Shown piece after piece: positions 32,474-55,200 of a stretch of DNA of 64,000 bases. Under the pieces are notes generated by a model. That model saw nothing but the letters and a program-made list of their open reading frames with translations, searched no databases and was not told the origin of the DNA. The translations under genes and the position numbers were made by a program. Position 1 is the stretch's first letter. Each line of letters begins with the position of its first letter. This stretch comes from Planctomycetota bacterium (GTDB lineage: Bacteria > Planctomycetota > SZUA-567 > H5-PLA8), in NCBI GenBank assembly GCA_035628505.1, contig DASPJR010000215.1, positions 1,808 through 65,807 on the forward strand, in the 5' to 3' direction.

Positions 32474-32848
32474 GCGCGCTTTGACATATTCGCCAAGGAC
32501 GCCAAGGCGCCAAGAACGCCAAGAAGTTTTGATTCATTAAATCCAAAATTACCAGCAAAAGCCGGCGCCAACCCCGACAGGACTGTCGGGGCCACCAGCA
32601 TGAGTAAGTAATCTTCGGCAGCTTGCCGTCACACTCCCGTCTTTATTCTTCGTGTCTTTGTGTCTTCGTGTTGAGCCGTTCCATTCAAGAGCCAAGAGCC
32701 GCCAACAGCCCCCGACAAACCCTAACGTCCCCTCTCCATTATGCCGATAACAGCCTATCTCGGATGGACTGTCGCAACGGGCAGCCTGCGAGCTTGTTTG
32801 AACTCTGCCGTATTCCCTTGGGGGGGAAGAAGTGGAGGGGATGTCAAA

Positions 32849-35821
32849 ATGGAGGGAGTAATGACGAGCGACAACGCCCGGGAAACACGCGCCATTGTCA
32901 CCGGCATGGGGCTGGTCTGCTTCGCGCTTTTTGCCGGAGTCAGCCTTTACACCCATTCACCCTACGACGTGATGGACTACAGCGCGGCGCAGTCCCATGA
33001 AATCGAAAACAAGGCCGGACTCATCGGCGCCTGGCTCGCGCATCACGCCTTCTGTGTCTATGGCGTCGGCGCATGGGTCATCGCCGTTCTACTGCTCGTC
33101 TTTGGCGGCGTGATGTGCTCGCTGCGTTCCATGGAAGGCGCCTTCAGCAAGTCCATCGGCGCGGTGCTGCTCACGCTGCTGGTCTGCGCCTGGGCGGGAG
33201 CAATGGACGTAAAAGGCGCCGTTTCCGAGTCCTTCCCAGCAGGCCCCGGCGGATTGCTCGGTGGAACGGTGCTCGCGCCGCCGCTGGTGAGTTACTTCGG
33301 AAAAGTCGGCGTGTTCCTGATTCTCTCGGCCGCCAGCACGCTCTGCTGCCTGCTGATTGCTCCGAGCCTCACTGAATCGCTGCTGTCGATGGTTGGACGC
33401 GGCGTGGTTCAGGGGCTGCATGCGGGAGTTGATTATCTGCTGGGCAAGCACGCGACGCCGGCGACGGCTCCGTTCACGCCGGCTGAACCGGCCCTGGCGG
33501 GTGCGTCGAGTTCGGGCGTCAGCGCACGGCGGCAGGCGATCCGTGACGAAAACGTTCAAGATATCGGTTCGGAAGTTTCGCGCGTCAACATGCTGCCCGC
33601 ACCCGACACGCGCAAGATCCGCATCCCCTTTGGCGATCTGCCGGAGAAGGGCGAGAAATCAGCCGAGAAAATCGAAAAGGCCGAGAAGGGTGGGGGAGAG
33701 GTCACGCCGGCCAAGCGCGCTAAGGTGGCCGAAGCGCTGGACGAGATTGCCGCCGAGAAGCTGGCCAAGTCGCGCATTGATGTCGAAGAAGAGAAGCCGA
33801 AGGCCGAGAAGAAATCGAAGGCGGAGCTCGACGCGATCAGTGAAGCCGACGAAGCCGAGCGCCGCAAGCAGGAAGCCGTGCGCCAGGCGGAGGCCGCCGA
33901 AGCCGAACGCCTGGAGCGCGAGAAACAGGCCAAAGAGCAGTTCCTCAAAGAGCAGAAAGAGGCCAAGGCTTTTGAGAAGCTCGAGAAGGAGCGCGCCGAA
34001 AAAGAAGCCAAGCTCGCCAAGCAGCAGGAGAAATTCCAGCAGGCGATGGCCGATGCCGCTGCTGCCGCAGCGAAAGCTAACGGTACCGCCGAGAAGACCG
34101 AAGAGGGCGAAGCCGAACCCGAAAAGCCGAAGCCGCAGCTTCCCGTCAACTATGATCTGCCGAAGTTTGAACTGCTCTTTGAGAAAGATGAAGCACCGCC
34201 GCCTGACAGCCTGGGTTTGAAAGAACGCGGCGCGACGCTGATCCAGACGCTCTGGGATTTCAAGCTCGGCGCCAAGCTCGTTGGCATCCAGACCGGCCCG
34301 ACGGTGAGCATGTACGAACTCGAGCTCGATCCGGGCATCAAGGTTCAGCGCGTGCTCAGCCTGCAGGATAATCTGGCGATGGCGATGAAAGCTGAGCACG
34401 GCGTGCGCATCATCGCGCCGATTCCGGGCAAGGCGACGATCGGGATTGAAATCCCCAACAGCGAGAAGCACAAGATCTGCATGCGGCCGATCCTGGAATC
34501 ACCGCAGTTCCGCGCCAAGGCCGGCACGCTGCCGCTCATTCTCGGCCGCGACGCCGTCGGAAATCCGCTCTTCCCCGACCTGGCGACGATGCCGCATCTG
34601 CTCATCGCCGGTACGACCGGTTCCGGAAAGTCGGTCTGCTTGAACTCGATCATCTTGAGCCTGATGATTCTCAAGAAGCCGCATGAAGTGAAGATGATCC
34701 TGGTCGATCCCAAGCAGGTTGAAATGACCGACTTCAAGGGCATTCCGCATCTGCTCTGTCCCGTTGTCACCGACATGAAGCTCGCGTCGGGCGTGCTCAC
34801 CTGGGCCGTGCAGAAGATGGAACAGCGCTACGAACGTATGAGCCGCGTGGCCGTCCGCAACATCGCGACGTTCAACAAGATGACCAGCGAAGAGCGCCTT
34901 GCGCGTTTGCCGGCCGACGTTCCGCCCGACGACTACATCGACCAGATGCCGTACATCGTGATCATCGTCGACGAATTCGCCGACCTGATGATGACGGCCG
35001 GCAAGGAAATCGAGCAGGCCATCGCGCGTCTGGCGCAGAAAGCGCGCGCCGCCGGCATTCACGTCATTCTCGCCACGCAGCGCCCGAGCGCCGATGTGGT
35101 CACCGGCCTGATCAAGACCAATTTGCCCTGCCGCATCTGCTTCCAGGTGAAGAGCAAGATCGACAGCCGCATCGTTCTCGATACCGGCGGCGCCGAGAAG
35201 CTCGCGGGCCACGGCGACATGCTCTATATCGGACCCGGCAACTCGAACCTGGTTCGCGCCAAGGGCGTCTTCACGGACGACAAAGAAATCAAGCCGATCG
35301 TGCAGTTCTGCAAAGACCAGGCCGAGCCCATCTACAGCGACGAGATCGAGAAAGTGGTCGCGCAGGCGGCGCAGGGCGAAGACGGCGAGCCCATCGAAGA
35401 GAACAACCGCCAGGCTATCGAGCTCGACGAGAAGTTCGACGAAGCCGTCGAAGTGTTCCTGGCCTGCGGACGCGCCTCCACGTCGCTGCTGCAGCGCCGC
35501 ATGGGCCTGGGCTACACGCGCGCGGCGAAGCTGTGCGACCAGATGGAAGCGCGCGGCATCGTCGGTCCCGATCGCGGCGCGAAGGGCCGCGAGCTGCTTA
35601 TCAGCCAGGAAGGCTGGGACAGCTTCAAGCGCGTGCGCGCGAATAACAATGGATCAGCCTGGGGCCCGAAGGGCAGCAAAGACAACCCCGGCGCTCAGCC
35701 CGCTCCCGCGCCAGCCGCTGCAGCTGTCATGGAAGAGGAAGCCCCGAAGCCCGCGAACATCGTCGATCCGGAGCTGCTCAAGCAACTGCCCGACGAGAAC
35801 ACGCCGCGCGACGAGATCTGA
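32849..35821 (+). CDS. ftsK: DNA translocase FtsK/SpoIIIE
   Basis: N-terminal TM helices. Long K/E/A-rich linker. Walker A GTTGSGKS. Walker B region (IVIIVDEFADLM). Gamma/winged-helix C-terminus (STSLLQRRMGLGYTRAAKLCDQMEARGIV). Start MEGVMTS at 32849 with GGAGGGG RBS. ORF-track start is 32741. Confidence 0.93.
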   Translation: MEGVMTSDNARETRAIVTGMGLVCFALFAGVSLYTHSPYDVMDYSAAQSHEIENKAGLIGAWLAHHAFCVYGVGAWVIAVLLLVFGGVMCSLRSMEGAFSKSIGAVLLTLLVCAWAGAMDVKGAVSESFPAGPGGLLGGTVLAPPLVSYFGKVGVFLILSAASTLCCLLIAPSLTESLLSMVGRGVVQGLHAGVDYLLGKHATPATAPFTPAEPALAGASSSGVSARRQAIRDENVQDIGSEVSRVNMLPAPDTRKIRIPFGDLPEKGEKSAEKIEKAEKGGGEVTPAKRAKVAEALDEIAAEKLAKSRIDVEEEKPKAEKKSKAELDAISEADEAERRKQEAVRQAEAAEAERLEREKQAKEQFLKEQKEAKAFEKLEKERAEKEAKLAKQQEKFQQAMADAAAAAAKANGTAEKTEEGEAEPEKPKPQLPVNYDLPKFELLFEKDEAPPPDSLGLKERGATLIQTLWDFKLGAKLVGIQTGPTVSMYELELDPGIKVQRVLSLQDNLAMAMKAEHGVRIIAPIPGKATIGIEIPNSEKHKICMRPILESPQFRAKAGTLPLILGRDAVGNPLFPDLATMPHLLIAGTTGSGKSVCLNSIILSLMILKKPHEVKMILVDPKQVEMTDFKGIPHLLCPVVTDMKLASGVLTWAVQKMEQRYERMSRVAVRNIATFNKMTSEERLARLPADVPPDDYIDQMPYIVIIVDEFADLMMTAGKEIEQAIARLAQKARAAGIHVILATQRPSADVVTGLIKTNLPCRICFQVKSKIDSRIVLDTGGAEKLAGHGDMLYIGPGNSNLVRAKGVFTDDKEIKPIVQFCKDQAEPIYSDEIEKVVAQAAQGEDGEPIEENNRQAIELDEKFDEAVEVFLACGRASTSLLQRRMGLGYTRAAKLCDQMEARGIVGPDRGAKGRELLISQEGWDSFKRVRANNNGSAWGPKGSKDNPGAQPAPAPAAAAVMEEEAPKPANIVDPELLKQLPDENTPRDEI

Positions 35822-35850: not shown

Positions 35851-35886
35851 CGCCCCCCATTCGTAATGGGGGGCGTTCGTTTTCAA
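35851..35886 (+). terminator. Rho-independent terminator of ftsK
   Basis: Perfect 9-bp stem cgcccccca-ttcgtaa-tggggggcg, followed by ttcgttttc. Confidence 0.8.
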
Positions 35887-35895
35887 TCCACCATT

Positions 35896-36425
35896 GCTGA
35901 GCTTGCCTGTTGTCTCATCCACTTTTCCTCGCCTTACACTAGAGGGTAGATTTGTTGCATAACAGTTTGACTAAGTCGTGGCAGCCACAGGAGTAAAAAA
36001 ATTGAAATGTTGCGCTTCGTGTTGCGCAACACACAAACCAAGGCGTGAAAACACGTTGCAACTTCGAACTTTCAATATTTAGACAAGTAGCTGAAATGTT
36101 ATATCCAGAGCGAACGGCACGCGTCACGCAAAGCTGCGAACGGATGGTTCCTAGTTCCCGGTGCTGTAGTCTAATATCTGGATGACCATCTGGGTTACTA
36201 GTTTCTGGCTCTGCATTTTGGTTTTGGCGAGACGGAGCACCGCCTGCGGTTTTGGGTTTCGGTACCGTCAGGCTGAAAGCCTGGGATATGAAAGCCCAGG
36301 GCAAAGCGAGCCGCGCGAGCGCCGCCCTGGGTCAGCGCACCTTTCGAGATCCTGAGCCCTGACAGGGCGAAATAAAGAGTAGTCTCTGATTCAAAAGTTG
36401 AGTAAGATGTCCCCGGAACTTCCCA
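35896..36425. repeat. about 520-bp direct repeat, copy 1 (left boundary of AT-rich island)
   Basis: 35899-36130 is about 95% identical to 39479-39710 (gagcttgcctgttgtctcatccacttttcctcgcc...). The middle diverges and is GGTTTT-rich. The 3' about 150 nt is again near-identical (caggctgaaagcctg...gccctggg...gagtagtctctgattcaaaagttgagtaag). Confidence 0.85.
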
Positions 36426-36707
36426 GAAGTAGGTCACTGTCCCTAGTTTCCGCCTCCCTGGTTTGAGTTAAATGATCCCTTCGACAACTCGGAGACAATC
36501 GCCTTTTCAATGCATAGAGATAGCCGCTCCGCGTCTATCCGGGCCACCCGCCCTTTTCAGAGAGTGCCACCCGCGATAAACGTTTTGTGGATGTCTAAAC
36601 CCACGCTCAGCCCATTGAAACGCGCGCGAAGTGAATTAATCTTCTTCATTGTTCCCTCCTCCTCTTGACCTTCGGACATGTGATTGCAGTCACTGAGCCC
36701 GTTATCG

Positions 36708-37196
36708 TCAATGGGGAGGGAACCTATTCACAACATCACTAAGCTCGATATGCTTCAAATTTTCTACGAATTCTGTAAATGAGGCAAAAGGTAGTGGGAC
36801 CTTATCAGGCGTATCTTCCACGGCGCCATACGGGTACCATAAACCAATAGCATACTTTTGTGGTTCCTTCATACTCATAATGACCTCCCAATCATCAAGG
36901 GTCACTGCGATACTCAGAAAATCCCTGAAACTGGGCACGTCGCTGACGATATTTTCATTTGCTAGAACTATCGAATAGATCGGCAATTTCGTTGAATCTG
37001 AAACACGGAGCCATTGCCTAATTTCCTGGCCAGTAGTCTTCAGTCTACATCGTTTTGACCAAGCACCATTATGCACAAGCAAAAATTGCTTGTAATCGTC
37101 AGGAAGGACAACGCCAAGTCGCCCTTCCACAGCACGCAGGTCGGCAGAGGTAATTTTTGGCCCACGCTCCTCAAATATGATATCGTTAGCTTTCAT
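36708..37196 (-). CDS. SMI1/KNR4 (SUKH-1) family protein. Immunity-protein-like, orphan.
   Basis: 162-aa ORF. AT-rich codon usage. GRLGVVLPDDYKQFLLVHNGAW is the SMI1/KNR4 signature. No toxin gene upstream on the same strand. Confidence 0.7.
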   Translation of the reverse strand: MKANDIIFEERGPKITSADLRAVEGRLGVVLPDDYKQFLLVHNGAWSKRCRLKTTGQEIRQWLRVSDSTKLPIYSIVLANENIVSDVPSFRDFLSIAVTLDDWEVIMSMKEPQKYAIGLWYPYGAVEDTPDKVPLPFASFTEFVENLKHIELSDVVNRFPPH

Positions 37197-37307
37197 CGAA
37201 CGTTCTCGTTAGTAAATATTCCATTTTGTTGAAGAAAGTCTAGAACCGCCCTTTCGCCAGACTACCCCATCGCGTCCCGAACAAGAATCATCTTGATCTC
37301 TCCTCTT

Positions 37308-37480
37308 GCGCGGGTGGGCACAGATACGACCGGATGGCACAGACGCGCAGCGGCGATCTGTGTCCCGCGGGCGGGTGGCATCCTTCTAGCGCTCCACATC
37401 AGCTTGCTTCCAATTCCGGAGTGGCGGGTGGCATTTGCTTGCACTCCGATCGCGGCTTGCGTCCGTTCAAGGGTGCCACT
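37308..37480. repeat. REP-like palindromic cluster (GCGGGTGGCA units)
   Basis: Four GGGTGGCA/TGCCACCC units. The 57-nt unit 37424-37480 is about 88% identical to 38621-38676. Further copies at 36541-36576, 37733-37762, 39395-39475 and 40020-40036. Confidence 0.7.
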
Positions 37481-37870
37481 GAGCTGCGGAGCAGATCAGT
37501 GCGATCGGCGGACGGATGCTTCCAAGCGCTACCGTGCTGGATCGTCCACTAACCTTTCATCGAGTCGTCAACGCTCAACGATTGATTGTCGCGCTTGCCG
37601 AGCACCAGTCACGCGAAATTGGACCAGCGCCAGTCGGCTGCGGACTTCACCAACCGCCGCTTCACTAGATTGTTGTGACAGTACTCCGCTTTCTCAATCG
37701 CCTTTTTCATCGACCAGATGTTGAGGTCGTGCGCGGCTGGTGGCACTTTGTGCCACCCGCGGGTCCGTTTTACGTTCCCTTATCGGGTGAAATGTCAAAT
37801 GACGATGCTAAGATCGCAAGACAGAATGCAGAGAAACTTCAGAGTATTAGACATTTGAGGGTGATGAAGC

Positions 37871-38602
37871 ATGTGGATATTCTTGGTAGTAGCAATCATT
37901 CTTTTTTCGAATGCAAATGCTCAGGATATTTTTAGCGGAGAGATGTCTGCAATAGGAAATGAGGCGATTCATTACGAACTGCTAAAGAAAAGGGTAGATC
38001 TTTGGCGCGGGGCCCCATTGTATCAAAGAATCGCTGCCGCCCAAGAAGCTGCTTCGTATTTGACTGATCTCAAAAGGATTCGCGAAACCGGAAACTTTCG
38101 AGGTAGAAGTGAACATGACCTTGAAATTGTCGCAGGTCGCGCAGCGCTTGTGATAACCGGACTAATCGGATTGACTTTGCCTTCAATAACTCGGGAATCT
38201 ACCCAGGATGAAGTGAAAGCATTTCCTGGAATTGCTGCAGCGTACTGCGATGGACTAATCAGGGGACTTGTTGAAACACGGCAAATGTTCGGCGCTGTTC
38301 TTTCAAGTGAGGTGAAAAAAAGGGTGTTAGAATTGAAGGAGGGGTATAATGCTGCGCGACATAAGGATGCTTCTGAGGATGAACTAATCAAGGCTGTCGA
38401 CTCGGCGTTGGGCTTTCTGGCTCTTCAGAATCCAATCGGATGTACTAAGGAAGAGATCGAAGCTTTTTTTGGACCACTTTCGGCAATCGACAAAGATAAT
38501 TATAAGGTAAATGTTTTAACCAGGCTAGGTGGGATTTCTCTTTGTTTTACCATCAAAGGTGATGTAGTGACAAAAGTATTACTTCAGAGCTCGGGAAAAT
38601 GA
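37871..38602 (+). CDS. hypothetical secreted protein (AT-rich island cargo)
   Basis: 243-aa ORF. Signal peptide MWIFLVVAIILFSNANA. About 43% GC. No recognisable domain. Confidence 0.6.
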   Translation: MWIFLVVAIILFSNANAQDIFSGEMSAIGNEAIHYELLKKRVDLWRGAPLYQRIAAAQEAASYLTDLKRIRETGNFRGRSEHDLEIVAGRAALVITGLIGLTLPSITRESTQDEVKAFPGIAAAYCDGLIRGLVETRQMFGAVLSSEVKKRVLELKEGYNAARHKDASEDELIKAVDSALGFLALQNPIGCTKEEIEAFFGPLSAIDKDNYKVNVLTRLGGISLCFTIKGDVVTKVLLQSSGK

Positions 38603-38620
38603 CGAAAAACTAGGGCAGTC

Positions 38621-38795
38621 AGGCGGGTGGCATTTGCTTGCGTTCCGATCACGGCTTGCCTCCGTTCAGGGGTGCCATGTCTGAATAGGTTCCCGGGTCA
38701 AGGCGGGTGGCATCTTTCTGCCGCTCTTGCATCAGCTTGCTCCCGATTTTGGGTGCCACCCGTCTCGCCGTTGAGACGGGTGCGGGTTGGGTGTA
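38621..38795. repeat. REP-like palindromic cluster, including the left inverted repeat of the RAYT unit
   Basis: ggcgggtggcat twice and gggtgccacccgtctcgccgttgagacgggtgcggg at 38751-38786. The latter is the reverse complement of 39389-39424 with one compensatory stem change. Confidence 0.7.
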
Positions 38796-38810
38796 GCATC
38801 CTCAAGCGCT

Positions 38811-39381
38811 ATGGATCAACCCGTTCCGCATCGCAAGCGCAACAAGAAATACAATATCCCGGGGCACGCTCATTTTCTGACTTTTTCATGTTACCGCCGC
38901 ATGGCGTTTCTCACCAACGACACGTTCCGCCGGTAGCTGGCAGACTCCATCCGCGCAAAGTGTGACGAGTTTTACTACGCGTTGTGGGCGTATGTGTTCA
39001 TGCCTGAGCACGTTCATCTGTTGCTCAAGCCGCGCCGTGAGATGTACGAATCTGGCCAAATTCGAGCAGAGCTTTAAACTTTCTTTTTCGCGTAAGCTGA
39101 TTGTTCAATTGTCGCGAGTGAATTCGCCCCTGCTGCAGTCGCTGCGCGTCAAGAACGGGTACCGCGTCTGGCAGGAGGGCGGTGGACACGATCTGAACAT
39201 CTGGTCGATGAAGAAGGCGATTGAAAAAGCAGAGTACTGTCACGGAAATCCGGTGAAGCGGCGGCTGGTGAAATCAGCGGAGGAATGGCGCTGGTCGAGT
39301 TTCTGCTGGCTGGTGCAGGGGAAGCGCGAGGATGCGCCGCTACGCGTTGATGTATGGGACGAAACTCTTCTGGAAGGCTGA
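38811..39381 (+). pseudogene. REP-associated tyrosine transposase (RAYT, IS200-like Y1 transposase), decayed
   Basis: MDQPVPHRKRNKKYNIPGHAHFLTFSCYRR...FRR, then in-frame TAG at 38934, then LADSIRAKCDEFYYALWAYVFMPEHVHLLLKPRR (the HVHLL Y1-transposase motif), then a frameshift near 39075 into the ORF-track frame (...YRVWQEGGGHDLNIWSMKK...HGNPVKRRLVKSAEEWRWSS). Confidence 0.75.
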
Positions 39382-39477
39382 GCGCCAACCCGCACCCGTC
39401 CCAACGGCGGGACGGGTGGCACCCGAAATTAACGAGCGCAAGCTGATGTGGGAGGTGGTAGAAAGATGCCACCCGCC

Positions 39478-39995
39478 TGAGCTTGCCTGTTGTCTCATCC
39501 ACTTTTCCTCGCCTTACACTAGAGGGTAGATTTGTTGCATAACAGTTTGACTAAGTCGTGGTAGCCACAGGAGTAAAAAAATTGAAATGTTGCGCTTCGT
39601 GTTGCGCAACACGCAAACCGAGGGGTGAAAATACGTTGCAACTTCGAACTTTCAATATTTAGACAAGTAGCTGAAATGTTATATCCAGTGCGAACGGCAC
39701 GCGTCACGCAAAGCCGCGAAGACGCAAAGAACGGCGCCGACGCGTCCTTGGTTTCTCGTTTTTGTTTTTGGTTTCTAGTTCCGGTTTCGGTTTTGGTTTT
39801 TGGTGAGACGGAGCACCGCCGGGGGTTTTGGGTTTCGCTGCCCTTCAGGCTGAAAGCCTGAAATACGAAAGCCCAGGGCAAAGCGAGCCGCGCGAGCGCC
39901 GCCCTGGGTCAGCGCCCCTTTCGAGATCCTGAGCCCTGACAGGGCGAAATAAAGAGTAGTCTCTGATTCAAAAGTTGAGTAAGGTGACCCCTGCA
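39478..39995. repeat. about 520-bp direct repeat, copy 2 (right boundary of island)
   Basis: See copy 1. Confidence 0.85.
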
Positions 39996-40105
39996 TGGGC
40001 GCAAGCCGCGAGTAGAGTGCAAGCTGATGCCACCCGCCAAGGAACTCGGAAAAATGCCGCTCTTCGGAGCGGCTTTTTTGCCGGTCCAGCGTATACTTGT
40101 GCGGC

Positions 40106-41335
40106 GTGAAAACGAGAGCGTCTATAACAGGAACTGCACGGCGGATTCTCTGCGCCGTCTTCGTGCTGACTTCATGTGCGCTCAGCGCCGGCGAGATGCC
40201 GCAGATCAAAGAGCCGGATTGGGAGGCATGGAAAAACGCTGATCCTGCGGCAAAGAAGCGCGCGGCAGATGACCTCGCTGTTGTGCTGGCCAGCCGGCCG
40301 CAGGCGTCAGCCACGCAGGCTGAAAAAGAGCAGGTTGCAAAGAAACTGAATGAGGCCTATGCGTCTCTTCAGAAAAATGCCGACGCGTCATACGCGGTCG
40401 CCGCGGAATTGCTGCGCAAAACCACCGACGATTGGGAGCGGCTGACGCTGGGGCTCTTGCTGGCCCCGGCCGCAAATGGTTCGACGTATCTGCACTGGGC
40501 GATGGCGAAATCGACAAGCCTTCCACCCAGTCTGTTTGAGCAGTTTTATTACATCGCCCGTGGCCTGGCCAGGGAGCGCAAGCCTGAAGTTCTGCCTGCC
40601 ATCACTCTGATGATGAAGGCCAGCGAGGGGCGACTCCGGCTGCCGTTTCTTTCGTGGCATATACCCTTCGAGGACTGTCTTTTTTACGTATTCGGCACAT
40701 ACGGTAAAGACGCTGTTCCTTACCTGCGGACGCTCCTGAACGATCCCTATCCGGTTGTGCGCCGTAACGCGGCCATTCTGCTCGGCTATTTCTTCGATCG
40801 CGAATCGGTTGCGATACTTCGCTTTGCGCTGAAGTCGGATGATCTGATTGCAGGCGGAGCTGCGTTCGCGCTGGGCGAGATGGGAATCCAGGACGCAGCA
40901 AAGGACATGGTACCTTTACTGAAGCACCCCGATGCCCGCACGCGTTTCTTCGCGGCGTACGGTATTTATGAACTGAAGTATAAGGAGGCGCTGCCTGATT
41001 TAGTCGAAGCATCGCACGACGAGTCGGATACGGAGACCTTCCAGGAGATCACGGAGACGATTAATTACTTAACTGAAAATCCTAAACCCGAGCCGGTGGT
41101 GAAAAAGCTTTCGCGTGAGGAACTTGATGCGGCGCTGGACGCTGCCGAGCGCTCCCGGGGAATGACGTTCGACGCCGATGTGCTGGTTGTGTCGTGCGAA
41201 GAGCGCGATATGCCCCGCATTGAGAAGCTGCTGCTTCTGCCGACGGAAATGCCTTCAGATAAAGCGCATAAGAAGTTCAGGCAGTTGCGTGAACTCTATA
41301 AGAAGCTGCATCGCCGGCTGAGTGGTAAGCCTTAA
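40106..41335 (+). CDS. secreted HEAT/PBS-lyase-like repeat protein
   Basis: GTG 40106 (VKTRASITGTARRILCAVFVLTSCALSA signal). HEAT-like repeats (PVVRRNAAILLGYF...DLIAGGAAFALGEMG...ARTRFFAAYGI). Confidence 0.7.
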   Translation: MKTRASITGTARRILCAVFVLTSCALSAGEMPQIKEPDWEAWKNADPAAKKRAADDLAVVLASRPQASATQAEKEQVAKKLNEAYASLQKNADASYAVAAELLRKTTDDWERLTLGLLLAPAANGSTYLHWAMAKSTSLPPSLFEQFYYIARGLARERKPEVLPAITLMMKASEGRLRLPFLSWHIPFEDCLFYVFGTYGKDAVPYLRTLLNDPYPVVRRNAAILLGYFFDRESVAILRFALKSDDLIAGGAAFALGEMGIQDAAKDMVPLLKHPDARTRFFAAYGIYELKYKEALPDLVEASHDESDTETFQEITETINYLTENPKPEPVVKKLSREELDAALDAAERSRGMTFDADVLVVSCEERDMPRIEKLLLLPTEMPSDKAHKKFRQLRELYKKLHRRLSGKP

Positions 41336-46348: not shown

Positions 46349-47143
46349 ATGATGGCTTTCATGAAAATGCTGCATGTGCCGGCTTTAATCGTTCTCACCG
46401 CTTCTGCACTCCTTGTGTGCGCCTTGCTGTTGCGGGGACGGACGGCGGATGCCGGCGACACATCTGGAGCAACACCTATGGGCAAGCCTAAGATCGATTC
46501 AACGCTGCCGCCAAAGCTTGAGACCGCCACGTTCGCGCTAGGGTGATTCTGGACCCCGGACTCCCAGTTTGGGAGCCTTCCTGGAATCTACCGCACACGC
46601 GTGGGCTACGCTGGCGGTAAGAAGCTAAATCCGACCTACCACGACCTCGGCGACCACACCGAGGCGTTCCAGATCGACTACGATCCGGCGGTGATCAGCT
46701 ACGAAAAACTGCTGAGCCTGTTCTGGAACAACCGTGCGTCGTGCCGCGCCGCGTGGAGCCGCCAGTACATGTCGGCGATCTTTTATCACAATGACGAGCA
46801 GAAGAAGCTCGCGCTGGAAACGAAGAAAGCGGTCGCTGCAACGGGCAAGGAAGTGCACGCCGAGATCCTTCCCGTCGGCACCTTCACGCTGGCCGAGGAC
46901 TATCATCAGAAATACATGCTGCGCAACGACCGCGTACTGATGCGCGAATTCAAAGCGATGTACCCGAACGACGCCGATTTCGTGAACTCCACCGCCGCCG
47001 CGCGCGTCAACGGCTATCTCGGCGGCGGGCGGCGCAAGATCACTGAAGCCGAACTGCGCAGTCTCGGGCTCTCTCCTGACGGCGAAAAATACCTGCGCAA
47101 GCAGGTTGAAGTCGTCGAGCCCGCCGCGGCCGTGGCGGAGTAA
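46349..47143 (+). CDS. msrA: peptide-methionine (S)-S-oxide reductase MsrA, selenocysteine form (in-frame TGA at 46544), N-terminal membrane anchor
   Basis: RBS gggaagga. MMAFMKMLHVPALIVLTASALLVCALLL...ETATFALG-TGA-FWTPDSQFGSLPGIYRTRVGYAGGKKLNPTYHDLGDHTEAFQIDYDP... TGA sits where MsrA has the catalytic Cys of GCFWG. The ORF track splits this gene into 46349..46546 and 46601..47143 in the same frame. Confidence 0.75.
46553..46582 (+). promoter_or_regulatory. SECIS-like hairpin downstream of the UGA in msrA copy 1
   Basis: ccggaCTCCCAgttTGGGAGcc begins 14 nt after the TGA. 6-bp stem, GUU loop. Confidence 0.55.
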
Positions 47144-47148
47144 CGTTC

Positions 47149-47892
47149 ATGCGGGGGCGGGTGCGGCTGACAGTGAGCGCTGCCGCCTGCGTGTGTGCCG
47201 GGCTGCTGCTCTATGCGCTCACGTCACATTCGCGCGCGAGCCGTCCGGTGCCGCCCATCGATAAAATTGCAGCAATTACGACCGAGACAGCAACATTTGC
47301 AGCGGGGTGATTCTGGGCCGCGGACTCCCAGTTTGGGAGTATCCCGGGAGTGCTGCGCACGCGCGCGGGATATGCGGGCGGTACGCTGGCGAATCCCACG
47401 TACGAGCGTTCCGGCGATCACGCGGAAGCCATTCAGATCGACTTCGACCCGGCGCAGGTTTCGTACGCTCGCCTGCTTGAAACGTTCTTCTCCAGCCGCC
47501 ACGTCTGCCGCAGCCAGACCTGGCAGCGCATCCGCTCGGTTGTGTTCGTTCACAGCGATTCACAGAAGAAGATCGCAAACGAAGCACTCGCGGCACGGCG
47601 CGCAGAAAACAAGGAAGTCCACGCCGAGATTCGCGAAGCAGGGACATTCCATATTGCCGAAGACAAGAACCAGAAGTACATGCTGCGCGCCGAGCCGGAA
47701 CTCTGGCGCGAGTTCACGGCAATGTATCCAGACGAGCGCGACATTGTGAATTCAACGGCCGCTGCGCGCATCAACGGGCTCATCGGCTTAAGCCGCCGAG
47801 CCGTGAGCGAGGAGGAGATGCGCAGTTTCGGGCTTTCCCCACAGGCTGCCGCTTTCCTGCGGCGGCAGCTTGACTTCGTTCCGGCCAAATAA
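47149..47892 (+). CDS. msrA: MsrA paralog, selenocysteine form (in-frame TGA at 47308), N-terminal membrane anchor
   Basis: ATG 47149 is 5 nt after the copy-1 stop. MRGRVRLTVSAAACVCAGLLLYAL...ETATFAAG-TGA-FWAADSQFGSIPGVLRTRAGYAGGTLANPTYERSGDHAEAIQIDFDP... Same frame as ORF 47350..47892. Confidence 0.75.
47317..47346 (+). promoter_or_regulatory. SECIS-like hairpin downstream of the UGA in msrA copy 2
   Basis: cgcggaCTCCCAgttTGGGAGtat. The stem-loop is identical to copy 1. Confidence 0.55.
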
Positions 47893-52267: not shown

Positions 52268-55200
52268 ATGCGTCAACGGTTGGCCCTTAGGTCCGTGTTA
52301 GCGTTTTGCATCGCGCTTGGACTCGGACGCGTGTTGTTCGCGCCCAGTTCCGCGCCCAACGCTAAGCTCGCTGCTACTCCGGTTTCTACGACTCCCGCGC
52401 CCGCGGTAGCCGTATCAACGGCAGCGACGCAGACGGCTGCGCCGCAACAGACTCCGCTGCCATTCCGCAGCGTTGATCGCCAGTTCAAGAAAGTGGCCGG
52501 CGGCGTGCAGAACGAAAATGCGCGCATGACCCACTTCCTGGCCACCGACGTTCTGGAAGGTGTGCTGCATACCGCCCCGGGTCACAAGGATGCTTTTGTG
52601 CGCTGGGTTCCGCAGACTCAGGAATTGCGCCGCGGACAGTCGACGGTTGCGCTGCTGGGCAAAACCCGATCGTCAAAAGCGCAGATTGAAGACGTTGGGG
52701 GTCTCAGCCGCGTCAGCTACGCCGGGACTTATCCGGACACCGATGAACGCATGTACATCCGCCCGGACGGCGGAATGGAACACGACTTCCTGCTGAGCAC
52801 GCCGCCGCTGGGCATCGATGGCAGCTATACGCTCGCGTACACCGGCCGTCTGTCCATGAGCAGTGATCTGACGCTGTGGGACGGCAGGCAGCAGATCACC
52901 AAATCACACACCACGCGCGGAGAGATCCGCTTCAAGAACCGCCAGGGCAATACAGTTTTCTGCCTGCGCAAGCCACTGGCCTACGACGCGTCGGTCACTG
53001 CCGCTGACGGTACGCTCGATGCCGAAAAGCAGAGCAGCGAAGCGAATATCCGCTGCGCGACCGGTCTGTCTTATCACATCGATTTCGATGACTCCGGCGT
53101 CACCCTCGCGATTCTTACGCCCGGCAGCTGGCTGGCTGCGCCTGAACGCGCCTACCCCGTCGTTATCGATCCGAACTTCGGCCCCTTTGGTCTGGCCGAC
53201 GGCGATCCGCCGATCTACACCGGCGTCTCAGGTTCCGATACGCTGATCCCGGCCGACACGGGCGGCGTTCCGCTGGTGATTGTTGATACCTGCCCCAACA
53301 AGCCGGACAACGGCTACGGCATTATTCCCATGCCTTTTGCGTTCAACTACTACAACACAAACCATCCGGTCGGCTCGCCGCTTTACGTTCACATCGACGG
53401 CTTCGCTGGCTGGGAGCAGCCGCGGCCGTTCCCGCAGAATCCCAATCCGTGTCAGGACACCGACAACACGCAGATTCCATCGGCCGGCTATCCTGACAAT
53501 GCGTTCTTTGCGTACTGGGACGACCTGCGCTTCTCCACGACGCCCGGCAGCGGCATCTACTATTTCATCGACGGCGTAGCTCCGACGCGGCGCCTGGTGA
53601 TCGAATGGTTCAAGATGGGCTACTCGCGCGCCAACAACAACGAAGTGATCAGCTTCAATCTGGTGCTGTACGAGTGCGAAGACAAAATTCAGATCATTAT
53701 CGGTCAGACCAACGAAACCGAACGCGGTCTGGCAACGGTTGGAATCGAAGATCCGACAGGCGCCATTGGCATCCAGTATGAATTCAATTCCGCCCTCGGC
53801 GGCGCGCTGCTGGGAAATAATCAGGGCGGCCAGTTCAATCCGTTCCTCGGCGGCGGCTTCGGTGGATTCGGTGGATTCGGCGGCTTTGGCGGCGGTGGTT
53901 TTGGTGGCGGAGGCCTGGGCTTTGGAGGCTTCGGCGGATTTGGCGGCGGCGGATTTGGCGGCGGCTTCGGCGGCGGCGCTGGCGGCGCGGTACCGAACAA
54001 CAACACGCCGAACGTCGGCAACACCAGTCAGCCGATTACGCCCGGCACGTCGCTGGTCTTTCAGCGCTCAGCGCTGGGACTGCTGACCGTGACGTCTACG
54101 CCGCGCACCGGCTGTATCCCGCATACTGTCTGCTTTGAGTCGACGATCACCATTCCCGTTTCGTCCTGTACGACAGCCGGGCAGACCACGACTACGACCA
54201 CGACCGGCGGCGGCGGGTTGGCTGGCGGGATCGGCGGTGGAGGCGGCGGTACCGGAACCGGCACAGGCGGCGGCGGACCCAACAACAAGTCTTTCGGCTT
54301 TAACTGGGTGTTCGGTGATAATGCCGAAGGCTTCACTCCCAATGTCTGCCACACCTGGGTGACGCCAGGCGTTTACCGTGCACAGCTCACGATTACCGAC
54401 GAGTTCGGCGTGCCGCTGACCCTGGACTTCCTGATCCAGATCTGCGACGTGCCGGACGTAGTGATCTCGGCAACCCCGCAGGGCGGCGTGGCCCCGCTGA
54501 TCGTGGATCTTGACGCCTTTGCGGCGTCAGCCAGCGTGACCATCACCGGCAACCCGCTGTGGGTCGTCGACCGCTTGACGGCCAAGGCTGAGGCCGGAAT
54601 TTTTACGACCATCGGCACCACGCAAGGCACCCCGGTGCAGGCGCATCTGGATACGCCTGGCATCTACCGCGTGACAGTCACCTTCACGGGAACGGATACG
54701 ACCAGCGGCCTGCCGACGACGGGAACGGGCACGGTCTACATCTTCGTCGCGGCTCCGACTGATGTGATTGAGGATTCGCTGGTCATTACCGAATCGCGCG
54801 TGGTCGTCGACTGGGCTGGAAAGCGCGACGGCCCGGATCCGGACGGCTTGTCCACCAGCCCTGGCGGCGCCGGCAACACAACTCCGGGCCAGGGCTTTCC
54901 CGACAATCCCGAAAACGATACGCTGTTCGTTCGCGGCTTCCTGAGCCTGCCTGGAATCGGCGAGTCGGCTCTGCTCGGCCGCCGTGTACAGGTGACCCTC
55001 AACGGCGTGGAAGCGATCTTCGACGGCATCCTAGATGCCGCCGGCACCGCAACCATGAATGATCCTGTGACCGGTCGCAGTGGTGTATTCAACATTTCGC
55101 TTCCATCAGGTGCCTTCTACTGCAACGTCAAGCGCAGCCTCTACACGCTGCTCGGTGTTTCAGACACGACCGAAGTGCGGCTGCTGCCGGCATTCATCGG

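Follow-up and report, generated by a model that had tools for sequence, protein, structure and literature searches.

The 64-kb window analysed here, which is the whole stretch of DNA under study, comes from a metagenome-assembled genome (MAG): the protein of its HEAT-repeat gene is 100% identical to P0001, which is annotated 'MAG TPA Planctomycetota bacterium'. Between ftsK and this gene lies a region of about 4.1 kb in which two 520-nt direct repeats bracket an orphan SUKH gene, an ORFan and REP/RAYT sequences. How did such a region arise? A sequence-only reading had preferred an undescribed mobile or defence-related module that entered as a single discrete unit, and had named duplication among its alternatives.

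Anatomy and composition of the ftsK-HEAT interval

The features of the interval and its native neighbours are listed in Table 1. In the identical ftsK gene of L003/L106, Pfam FtsK_4TM, FtsK_alpha, FtsK_SpoIIIE and FtsK_gamma were all matched, and the exact FtsK sequence was present on one contig only. The nearest homologues of the HEAT protein in a database search were only about 40% identical, and none was found beside ftsK. Neither a close relative nor an alternative haplotype was found in the databases, which counts against the duplication that we favour below. The first repeat, DR1, starts 11-12 nt past the ftsK terminator, where the sequence-only reading had placed the left edge. The right edge, placed at 39995, has to be moved: REPs run on past the second repeat, DR2, to 40039, and thus the right boundary of the unusual region lies at about 40040-40080. 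As had been claimed, an integrase or recombinase is absent: an ORF check of the interval found no recombinase, nor is there a tRNA.

Table 1. Positions of features in the window
Feature	Position	Strand	Remarks
ftsK, native left neighbour	32741..35821	+	ORF; gene callers' start 32849 (990 aa)
ftsK intrinsic terminator	35851..35885	+	11-bp stem, then T-run
DR1, non-coding repeat copy	35897..36414	.	left block 35897-36140 (GC 45%), variable centre 36141-36264, right block 36265-36414 (GC 57%)
Terminator-like hairpin in DR1	36007..36032	-	GTGTTGCGC-loop-GCGCAACAT, then TTCAATTTTTTT
Three-hairpin Acido-Lenti-1-type module in DR1	36263..36382	.	hp2 loop expanded to 21 nt
~20-nt motif, two copies (GAGTAAGATGTCCCCGGAA, GTAGGTCACTGTCCCTAGTTT)	36401..36456	+	straddling, then beyond, the right end of DR1
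REP cluster 1	36518..36575	-	REP-c type hairpin and second REP core
30-aa ORF (MKKINSLRARFNGLSVGLDIHKTFIAGGTL)	36557..36649	-	gene called in L003; cut by REP
SUKH-1 (SMI1/KNR4) gene	36708..37196	-	162 aa, AT-rich, without toxin partner
REP cluster 2	37309..37478	+	tandem REP-c, partial REP-a, REP-b
RAYT1 remnant	37520..37735	-	C-terminal third of RAYT only, with stop codon
REP cluster 3	37735..37767	.	palindromic REP pair
ORF243, AT-rich ORFan	37871..38602	+	predicted Sec-type signal peptide
REP-b	38622..38677	+	inverted partner REP-b' at 39987-40039
IS200-like RAYT unit	38702..39477	+	REP-a (38702-38790), RAYT2 pseudogene (38811-39381), REP-a' (39385-39477)
DR2, second repeat copy	39477..39991	.	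exactly between outer end of REP-a' and REP-b'
REP-b' (REP cluster 6)	39987..40039	-	inverted matches 83% and 77%; beyond the island as first delimited
Terminator-like hairpin, bidirectional	40056..40080	.	immediately upstream of HEAT gene
HEAT-repeat gene, native right neighbour	40097..41335	+	Pfam HEAT_2; NCBI start 40163

The abrupt shift in GC content described earlier is real, from 64% at the 3' end of ftsK to an island mean of 50.9% (59.4% in the rest of the window), but it is not uniform. GC varies as a mosaic: it is 44.6% in the SUKH gene, 44.0% in ORF243 and 45% in the left blocks of the repeats, whereas the REP/RAYT segments are host-like at 57-61%. Likewise, GC3 is host-like (0.72) in the N-terminal part of the RAYT and reaches 0.78 in ftsK. 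The island consists of several compositional parts and is not one unit. Because GC3 is 0.43 in the SUKH gene and 0.37 in ORF243, compared with a host mean of 0.71±0.05, a foreign origin of these two genes is supported, and they were probably acquired horizontally.

The SUKH protein matches Pfam SMI1_KNR4 (PF09346; 43.2 bits, E = 7e-11). The SUKH superfamily includes orphan immunity genes of polymorphic-toxin systems. Like such genes, ours encodes a small SMI1/KNR4-domain protein, is foreign in composition and has no adjacent toxin. Unlike them, it does not stand in an immunity-gene array, no toxin domain was found in the large ORFs of the window that were scanned (which agrees with the lack of a cognate toxin noted before), and its closest homologues, among 59 representative ones of which the best is 63% identical, stand alone beside housekeeping genes (RNase H, AP endonuclease, chondroitinase). 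As array and toxin are missing and the homologues are solitary, an immunity role would be a family-level guess. PADLOC gave one weak match only.

The N-terminus of ORF243, MWIFLVVAIILFSNANA/QD, is predicted to be a Sec signal peptide. The protein has no family in Pfam, NCBIfam, PHROG or PADLOC, and the earlier description of a domain-less signal-peptide protein stands. ORF243 matches itself alone among 5.8 billion protein clusters, and its AlphaFold2 single-sequence model (pLDDT 55) was unusable. The 30-aa ORF may bear an unsupported resemblance to the N-terminus of an IS110-family transposase; searches of Pfam, PHROGs and PDB and a tblastn against plasmids gave no match.

REP hairpins, RAYT genes and a second nest

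The REP motif GCGGGTGGCA occurs exactly eight times, compared with 0.26 expected. With up to one mismatch to GGCGGGTGGCA, 12 sites were found, and the six clusters that they form, all at 36542-40038 with none in the other 60 kb, bear out the earlier count of at least six palindrome clusters. REP-b and REP-b' are an inverted pair (52 nt, 77% complementary).

REP-a and REP-a' are the left and right inverted ends of the RAYT unit. Its gene, RAYT2, contains one in-frame stop and one frameshift; when repaired, it scores 83.4 bits with NCBIfam REP_Tyr_transpos (cut-off 80) and 28.6 bits with Pfam Y1_Tnp, and it is flanked by inverted arms of 45 nt (93%) and 22 nt (95%). A decayed RAYT with inverted hairpin repeats had been recognized from the start. 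A stretch of 730 bp (38702-39425) is found again in L103/L104 at 86% identity, and the outer end of REP-a is precisely the point where this homology begins. The RAYT unit is a discrete repeated unit. Other relatives are an intact RAYT that is 91% identical (P0091) and a 71% identical one (L105), which is a plain gene with an inverted hairpin on either side and housekeeping genes around it. RAYT1, a second and truncated remnant that the sequence-only reading had missed, matches RAYT2 in inverted orientation (37568-37731 vs 39187-39350, 164 nt, 79%).

The design of a nest plus orphans recurs at a second locus of the same metagenome. L103 is a REP/RAYT nest, to which its REPs are confined, with AT-rich orphans at its edges: orf79 (GC3 0.44) and a SUKH-like gene of 186 aa (GC3 0.43; SMI1_KNR4 E = 1.4e-3). 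The SUKH-like gene is unrelated to our SUKH gene at the BLASTP level (E = 0.06). Downstream of it are four copies of the ~20-nt motif from the end of DR1, and a 35-39-nt piece spanning that end stands contiguous in L103. No copy of the 520-nt repeat is present in L103 or L104.

These loci bear on the proposal that REP-bounded segments (the SUKH gene between inverted REP-c, ORF243 and DR2) are cassettes that an intact RAYT picked up or mobilised in trans, an idea close to the one favoured by the sequence-only reading. Every AT-rich segment lies between REP clusters, the inverted REP cores flanking the SUKH gene have the same configuration as those around the RAYT gene, the design recurs in L103, an intact enzyme exists, and the RAYT family is multi-copy here, whereas single-copy RAYTs are reported to be the norm (PMC5581495). 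However, no cargo segment was found twice, ORF243 has no match but itself, the two SUKH genes are unrelated, DR1 lacks REP flanks, and REP orientation is inconsistent, being inverted round the SUKH gene and direct round orf137 of L103. In addition, RAYTs are not known to mobilise cargo. We find this account very unlikely.

Origin of the direct repeats

DR1 and DR2 are about 518 nt long, 88.5% identical overall and separated by a period of 3580 nt. As had been described, they are long imperfect repeats with a diverged centre: identity is 97% between the left blocks (35897-36140 vs 39477-39720, 244 nt) and 95% between the right blocks (36265-36414 vs 39842-39991, 150 nt), while in the centre 64 nt align at 80% identity and about 50-60 nt are unalignable. 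The centre is built from tandem 6-nt and 20-nt units, seen in DR2 as a TTTTGG microsatellite with 20-nt units, and is slippage-prone. A manual count from the alignment placed the seven left-block substitutions 3:3:1 over the codon positions, so there is no coding signal. The terminator-like hairpin of DR1, which contains a perfect 14-nt palindrome (GTGTTGCGCAACAC) and is identical in DR2 (39587-39612), would on the minus strand stop read-through transcription from the SUKH gene.

Only a 65-100-nt three-hairpin module of the repeat has relatives, and cross-genome homology is confined to repeat positions 372-438. The DR1 module scores 33.2 bits with Rfam RF01687 (minus strand, 36269-36331; gathering score 37) and 67.6 bits with our own covariance model, R1; for the DR2 module (39840-39959) the scores are 34.6 and 68.8 bits. 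Homologues were found in 91 loci of other genomes, with multiple copies in Gemmataceae, Marinilabilia and others.

Could the 520-nt repeat itself be a small non-autonomous element, MITE-like and perhaps directed at REPs, of which two independent insertions took place, one behind the ftsK terminator and one within a REP doublet? Its homology ends sharply on both sides between unrelated flanks, DR2 occupies precisely the space between two REP units, the inner module behaves as a dispersed and often inverted-paired repeat in other genomes, and element families typically show conserved ends and a variable centre. Nevertheless, we consider this unlikely. The ends show neither terminal inverted repeats nor the target-site duplication that had been suggested as a check, and the module is the only part with homology in other genomes. 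The two copies are the only ones in the 64 kb, and neither repeat nor island was found in plasmid and phage records, IMG/VR, or pattern scans of GTDB species genomes and JGI metagenomes; as the host genome was covered by these 64 kb and one other contig, it may hold further copies. Moreover, the last 25 nt of DR1 and 13 nt of its flank are contiguous in L103, where the rest of the repeat is absent, which argues against the right end of DR1 being an element terminus.

The repeat-X-repeat layout also recalls Campbell-type integration of a 3.58-kb circle, carrying a diverged repeat, the SUKH gene, ORF243 and RAYT/REP sequences, into a resident repeat downstream of ftsK. AT-rich cargo genes fit this idea, as do highly identical edges around a diverged centre, if two alleles recombined in their conserved parts; with no recombinase present, host RecA would be needed. 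We consider it quite unlikely. The supposed insert is mixed in composition, as its REP/RAYT part looks like host DNA and has homology to a further locus of the host; the inverted pair REP-b (38622) and REP-b' (39987) spans the supposed junction; no other genome, plasmid or phage searched contained a homologue of repeat or insert; and the circle would have no replication or transfer function.

It is most improbable that the duplication was created by the assembly of the MAG, through collapse or wrong joining of a repeat. Short-read assemblies do break at repeats and within RAYT2. However, the copies differ by 3-5% and in a rearranged centre, and in an independent ENA assembly, which probably shares its reads with that of the window, unique sequence joins each copy in a separate contig: L003 runs ftsK-DR1-SUKH-ORF243 and L001 runs DR2-HEAT. 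Both contigs end inside RAYT2, consistent with the join.

In sum, the region is a patchwork that includes degraded selfish DNA in the form of REP hairpins and broken RAYT genes, and nothing shows a new mobile or defence element. Against a module inserted as one 4.1-kb unit stand the host-like REP/RAYT parts, the repeat ends with unrelated flanks and with neither terminal inverted repeats nor target-site duplication, the lack of other copies in the collections searched, the contiguous DR1 end in L103, the stand-alone SUKH homologues and the single weak PADLOC match. The evidence favours the alternative in which the bracketing repeats arose by duplication. On balance, we believe that the region is a recombination-prone REP/RAYT nest with accreted orphan genes, in which a non-coding segment of 0.5 kb gained a second copy at a distance of 3.58 kb.

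We propose the following model. The ftsK-HEAT interval hosts a nest made of a host-adapted IS200-like RAYT unit with hairpin-rich inverted ends of about 90 nt, a fragment of another RAYT and REP hairpins in six local clusters. REP dimers are reported to block replication forks and destabilise DNA, and insertions between dimer partners have also been reported (PMC3733652). The nest may have become a recombination-prone dumping ground, where two AT-rich genes of foreign composition, the orphan SUKH gene and the secreted ORFan, settled between REP clusters. The 520-nt repeats would be two copies of one non-coding segment and not the ends of an inserted element; this segment comprises an AT-rich block with a minus-strand terminator, the slippage-prone T/G-rich centre and the Acido-Lenti-1-type module. 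We infer that a single duplication event without transposition produced one copy from the other, perhaps by replication template switching, or by unequal exchange followed by deletion, at REP hairpins, and that the new copy was inserted exactly between two REP units. We count in favour of this that DR2 takes up the whole interval from REP-a' to REP-b', the latter pairing inverted with REP-b. The copies would later have drifted by 3-5%, while slippage of 6-nt and 20-nt units remodelled the centre. Against the model count the junction microhomologies (TGAGCT beside REP ends, TG.CCCC at the right end), which are short and statistically not significant, and the further copies of the repeat that the host genome may contain. 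Alternatively, the unalignable centre could mean that DR1 and DR2 are different alleles of a repeat family.

Comparison with known systems

As in islands bounded by integrase att duplications and in composite transposons, direct repeats here bracket atypical genes beside a conserved gene. Unlike those systems, the region lacks an integrase, a tRNA/tmRNA target and terminal IS copies, and the repeats are 520 nt long, imperfect and without target-site duplication.

The module within the repeats resembles Acido-Lenti-1 (RF01687; Weinberg et al. 2010, PMC2864571) in two hairpins, their spacer and loop pattern, and relatives with the same stems and shorter loops attain the gathering score. The DR modules differ in their 21-nt hp2 loop, in scores just under that threshold (33-35 bits) and in having a third hairpin, which covaries. 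In Planctomycetota, Verrucomicrobiota, Bacteroidota and other groups, the family found here lies between genes in multiple copies that often form inverted pairs; its appearance is that of a REPIN/MITE-type repeat more than of a lone sRNA gene.

The RAYT unit is similar to IS200/IS605 elements in that 776 bp (38702-39477) place a Y1 transposase between structured ends and recur at 86% identity. However, its ends are ~90-nt inverted repeats of REP units instead of distinct left-end and right-end hairpins, it has no tnpB, and this copy is dead.

Also among the closest known systems are REP/RAYT systems (REPtrons, REPINs), specifically the sub-type with long terminal inverted repeats round the RAYT (Di Nocera et al. 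2013, PMC3733652). In both, a RAYT-class HUH/Y1 transposase (NCBIfam NF047646) lies between inverted hairpin repeats that share their core with nearby short palindromes, and REPs occur in doublets and clusters. Our system is different in that the RAYT is a pseudogene, that its family has at least four copies or fragments in two loci plus the intact 91%-identical paralogue, that REPs were observed in the nests alone, with none in the 60 kb around, instead of being dispersed, and that the nests contain AT-rich orphan genes.

The direct repeats between ftsK and the HEAT-repeat gene

The window belongs to a Planctomycetota genome that was assembled from a metagenome. The sequence-only reading had described long imperfect direct repeats bracketing the region between the ftsK terminator and a HEAT-repeat gene, and these are real (DR1 and DR2, the two copies of a 520-nt repeat; see the table). 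Identity between the two copies is 97% over the left 244 nt and 95% over the right 150 nt, and the diverged centre consists of 64 nt at 80% identity and ~50-60 nt that cannot be aligned. TTTTGG-type hexamers and a pair of 20-nt units (TGGTTnCTAGTTnCnGG) make up the centre, and the spacing of the 20-nt units differs between DR1 and DR2. This composition explains much of the fast divergence of the centre.

It is conceivable that the repeat pair is an assembly artefact, as all of the assemblies probably share one read set. Each copy, however, is joined to unique DNA in its own ENA contig: one contig (L003) carries ftsK, DR1, SUKH and ORF243, and a separate one (L001) carries DR2 and the HEAT-repeat gene. 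A simple collapse artefact is therefore unlikely, and we regard any artefactual origin of the pair as very improbable.

The 520-nt repeat looks non-coding. Its ORFs gave no match in a Pfam search, and the seven left-block substitutions between DR1 and DR2 are distributed 3:3:1 across codon positions, showing no codon-position bias. On the minus strand, the left block contains a terminator-like hairpin followed by a T-run (36007-36032 in DR1, 39587-39612 in DR2); downstream of SUKH, no such signal comes earlier. The global RNA fold of the repeat was no stabler than shuffles (z = -0.84 and -2.39 for the minus strand, +0.08 for the plus strand). The left block also contains a candidate small ORF encoding MKCCASCCATHKPRRENTLQLRTFNI, at 36002-36082 (+) and 39582-39662 (+). 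It has a TTG start with GGAG 8 nt upstream, overlaps the minus-strand terminator hairpin, and differs between DR1 and DR2 by two synonymous and two non-synonymous changes.

Both copies have sharp ends and unrelated flanks, and the repeat could be a MITE-like element that inserted on two separate occasions. Its terminal inverted-repeat score was no better than that of shuffles, target-site duplications of at least 5 nt are lacking at DR1 and DR2, and the only two copies found are those in the window. The further copies for which the sequence-only reading had suggested a search did not appear: there were no relatives in a pseudo-ORF back-translation search of GTDB species genomes and JGI metagenomes, and the conserved-core pattern matched nothing in JGI metagenomes or IMG/VR. 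Thus, the repeat lacks the hallmarks of a composite transposon or MITE, and two MITE-like insertions seem unlikely. Alternatively, a 3.58-kb circle may have been integrated by Campbell-type homologous recombination, which would agree with the repeat-insert-repeat layout. The repeat had no blastn match among plasmids or phages, and we consider this route rather unlikely too.

The ends of the repeats differ in their surroundings. DR2 starts exactly where REP-a', an inverted copy of the REP hairpin REP-a, has its outer end, and it stops at REP-b', which forms an inverted pair with REP-b at 38622. Such a position would suit a RAYT that captures cargo in trans into REP-bounded slots. DR2 lies inside the REP field and DR1 lies outside it, and we find capture in trans quite improbable. 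A contiguous piece of 35-39 nt, made up of the last ~25 nt of DR1 and 13 nt of its right flank, recurs at ~80% identity in L103, where it lies downstream of a SUKH-like gene and the rest of the 520-nt repeat is absent. Because the piece is contiguous with its flank in L103, the right end of DR1 appears to be local sequence of an ordinary kind and not the terminus of an element, which also argues that DR1 keeps its original context. The idea that the L103 spacer is homologous to the 520-nt repeat but diverged was rejected, since the two have in common only this piece and motifs of ~20 nt. At both loci, these motifs (TAAGGTGaCTGTCCCyAGT, approximate consensus) are arranged as direct repeats on the downstream side of the SUKH-type gene, twice at 36401-36456 in the window and four times in L103 (13030-13140 and 13360-13380). 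They could be an array of putative protein-binding sites.

Features of the ftsK-HEAT region and of the second nest (window coordinates unless a contig is named)
Feature	Position	Remarks
ftsK terminator	35851-35885	
Direct repeats DR1 and DR2	35897-36414 and 39477-39991	between ftsK terminator and HEAT-repeat gene
Acido-Lenti-1-type module copies	36263-36382 and 39840-39959	
SUKH	36708-37196 (-)	162 aa
RAYT1 remnant	~37520-37735 (-)	C-terminal third only
ORF243	37871-38602 (+)	243 aa, signal peptide
IS200-like unit	38702-39477	REP-a (38702-38790), RAYT2 pseudogene, inverted REP-a' (39385-39477)
HEAT-repeat gene	40097-41335	Pfam
Second REP/RAYT nest	L103:9300-13450 = L104:1800-5950	same locus; between MgtC gene and Laminin_G gene

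A REP/RAYT nest with orphan genes

The contents listed in the sequence-only reading were confirmed: a SUKH gene, a signal-peptide ORF, REP clusters and a RAYT pseudogene with inverted arms, and no recombinase. The REP core GGCGGGTGGCA forms six clusters with 12 sites at no more than one mismatch, all within 36542-40038 and none in the other 60 kb of the window; the exact REP 10-mer occurs 8 times, against 0.26 expected. The region does not end at 39995, as had been thought, because REPs continue past DR2 to 40039.

When one stop codon and one frameshift were bridged, the reconstructed RAYT2 scored 83.4 bits on NCBIfam REP_Tyr_transpos (NF047646, cut-off 80) and 28.6 bits on Pfam Y1_Tnp (cut-off 23), and its translation shows HUH (PEHVHLL) and Y (AEYCHGNPV) motifs. 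It is flanked by inverted arms (I3, 45 nt, 93%; I6, 22 nt, 95%), and a similar arrangement is found in L105, where a RAYT 71% identical is a lone gene between two inverted hairpins with housekeeping neighbours and no island. The RAYT1 remnant is 79% identical to RAYT2 over 164 nt. RAYT2 has more than 1000 homologues. One of these (P0091) is an intact 189-aa RAYT, 91% identical to reconstructed RAYT2, on a 68.7-kb contig labelled 'MAG TPA Planctomycetota bacterium', so the host genome or a sister genome probably encodes a functional transposase of the family.

The same design occurs at a second locus, found on an 18-kb contig of the window's ENA sample (L103) and in a JGI sample (L104). In both, 730 bp of the IS200-like unit recur at 86% identity, and the outer end of REP-a is exactly where the homology begins. 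L103 contains a 126-aa RAYT fragment and a 202-aa RAYT gene, with REP cores only around these two. At the edges of the nest lie two AT-rich orphan ORFs, one of 79 aa (GC3 0.44) and one of 186 aa (GC3 0.43) that weakly matches SMI1_KNR4 (E = 1.4e-3, under the gathering score). The genes to either side of the nest are native, with GC3 of 0.76-0.80. The SUKH-like protein of L103 and SUKH of the window are not close paralogues (BLASTP E = 0.06). A nest with foreign-looking orphan genes is thus a recurring pattern in the population, not a unique cassette. The RAYT is also not single-copy, with two copies or fragments in the window, two in L103 and the intact paralogue P0091. Within the 64-kb window and L103, REPs were found only in the nests and not dispersed.

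The sequence-only reading saw the whole region as an AT-rich island. This is correct for SUKH (44.6% GC), ORF243 (44.0%), the regions upstream of both genes and the left blocks of the repeat (45%), but the REP/RAYT segments (57-61%) are host-like. They and the right blocks of the repeat (57%) are similar to the rest of the window (59.4%), so that the region is a mosaic. Codon usage supports the proposed foreign origin of the two genes: GC3 is 0.43 in SUKH and 0.37 in ORF243, compared with 0.71±0.05 (minimum 0.56) in 26 long ORFs of the host. The N-terminal part of RAYT2 is host-like (0.72).

SUKH belongs to the SMI1/KNR4 (SUKH-1) family (PF09346, 43.2 bits, cut-off 25.4). A search at E <= 1e-3 gave 59 representative homologues, of which the top two share 63% and 48% identity with it; these two are solitary, with an RNase H, an AP endonuclease and a chondroitinase-like gene as neighbours rather than toxins. 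A scan of the island and of large ORFs in the window found no toxin domains (RHS, CdiA, MafB etc.) and thus no cognate toxin, there is no tandem array of immunity genes, and an immunity role for SUKH is inferred at the level of the family only. ORF243 has no family in any of four libraries. It is an ORFan that matches only itself among 5.8 billion protein clusters, with no homologues for an alignment, and its single-sequence model is unreliable (pLDDT 55). An ORF at 36557-36649, which we took to resemble an IS110-family transposase, was dropped as a remnant of this family because it had no match in Pfam, PHROGs, PDB or a plasmid tblastn search.

Other classes of element were also rejected. An integrase-mediated genomic island or prophage does not fit, as there is no recombinase in the ORF inventory or Pfam results, no tRNA or tmRNA, and no phage match, and the repeats are 520 nt long and imperfect. 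An integron cassette array does not fit either, since there is no integrase ORF, the repeats are REPs of the RAYT family, and genes lie in both orientations. The misfit to both classes had been recognized from sequence. For a defence system, PADLOC gave only a weak candidate-family match of the SUKH protein (PDC-M40A). With this match alone, and no terminal inverted repeats, target-site duplication or other copies in the collections searched, the reading as an undescribed mobile or defence-related module is not supported. Cumulative GC skew has its minimum at ~37-38 kb, but DnaA boxes are not clustered there and a replication origin was rejected.

No close relative was present in the collections searched. 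The exact FtsK, HEAT and SUKH sequences occur in the same sample only, with exact FtsK on a single contig. No HEAT homologue exceeds 43% identity or adjoins ftsK; the homologues on three other Planctomycetota contigs (~40% identity) have entirely different neighbourhoods. Thus, the ftsK-HEAT adjacency is lineage-specific. Two further repeats in the window lie apart from the nest. At 46520-47777, two pairs of ~170-nt segments with 764-nt spacing (46520-46690 / 47284-47454 and 46846-47013 / 47610-47777; 71-72% identity) are probably tandem paralogous genes. At 53852-53989, GGC/GGA/TTT-rich tandem units of 15-18 nt encode a Gly/Phe-rich low-complexity stretch of a 1201-aa PKD-domain ORF.

An Acido-Lenti-1-type module in the right block

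The right block of the 520-nt repeat contains a three-hairpin module (hp1-hp3) that matches Acido-Lenti-1 (RF01687) at 34.6 and 33.2 bits in the two copies, under the gathering score of 37; no Rfam family reached its gathering score in the window. Related copies elsewhere do reach it (L069, 38.2 bits; L021 and L038, 37 bits). Homology of other genomes to the 520-nt repeat is confined to repeat positions 372-438, and a covariance model of the module matched only the DR1 and DR2 copies in a scan of the window.

When GTDB species genomes were searched with a pattern based on the two stems, 91 stretches matched; the loci retrieved and the window together gave 103 module copies. The pattern fixes hp1 and hp2, which cannot vary by design, and hp3 shows both-side changes in 5/5 pairs, a score reached by 0/500 shuffles. 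Hosts include Gemmataceae (Fimbriiglobus, Frigoriglobus), Marinilabilia salmonicolor, Verrucomicrobiota, Victivallales, Chlamydiales, Bacteroidales and one Pseudomonadota MAG. This taxonomic range far exceeds that given by Rfam. The copies are intergenic and frequently form convergent inverted pairs ~100 nt apart; examples among loci L008-L098 are L064:1634-1694+ / 1792-1849- and L023:6604-6648+ / 6750-6794-. In Fimbriiglobus, the repeated unit is ~320 nt long. No RAYT genes of the window's family were found near modules in other genomes.

The Acido-Lenti-1 motif therefore appears to be a widespread, multi-copy and often inverted-paired intergenic repeat of the PVC superphylum and Bacteroidota. 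It behaves more as a REPIN or MITE than as an sRNA gene, which would change the interpretation of the Rfam family.

A model for the region and its relation to known REP/RAYT systems

Based on the host sequence in view, the 64-kb window and one other contig, we somewhat favour a single, non-transpositional duplication of the repeat within a REP/RAYT nest that accreted foreign orphan genes. We propose that the gap of a REP doublet may have received a copy of a ~515-nt segment that lies 3.58 kb upstream. Copying could have occurred by template switching, or by unequal exchange followed by deletion, at REPs that form hairpins. Afterwards, the two copies would have drifted by 3-5% and their centre would have undergone slippage. 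The sequence-only reading had offered duplication as an alternative, and this now gains support; the mechanism and the direction are our inference, and the junction microhomologies are too short for significance.

Two further readings are improbable even when taken together. In one, the nest would be a RAYT-dependent platform for gene capture and shuffling, whose REP-bounded slots would repeatedly take foreign AT-rich orphans (SUKH-type at two loci) and non-coding segments such as the 520-nt repeat. In the other, the 520-nt repeat would be a lineage-specific family of structured RNA genes, with an Acido-Lenti-1 module as their basis and a centre that varies.

Taken as a whole, the region is best described as a REP/RAYT nest to which foreign orphan genes have been added. 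Its main worth is a caution: an 'island' between long direct repeats can stem from local repeat-driven rearrangement and need not be a new mobile element.

In the textbook picture, a single-copy RAYT is accompanied by dispersed REPINs. The family described here differs in being multi-copy and IS-like, with ends of ~90 nt built from REPs, and its REPs are grouped in nests, alongside foreign orphan genes. Di Nocera et al. (PMC3733652) describe RAYT genes whose flanks are long inverted repeats in place of simple REPs, and report that REP dimers stall replication and that inserted DNA often separates the two partners of a dimer. Within the known REP/RAYT theme, what sets this region apart is the nest-only clustering of REPs seen in the window and L103, a multi-copy RAYT with long REP-built ends, and the orphan genes that these nests contain.
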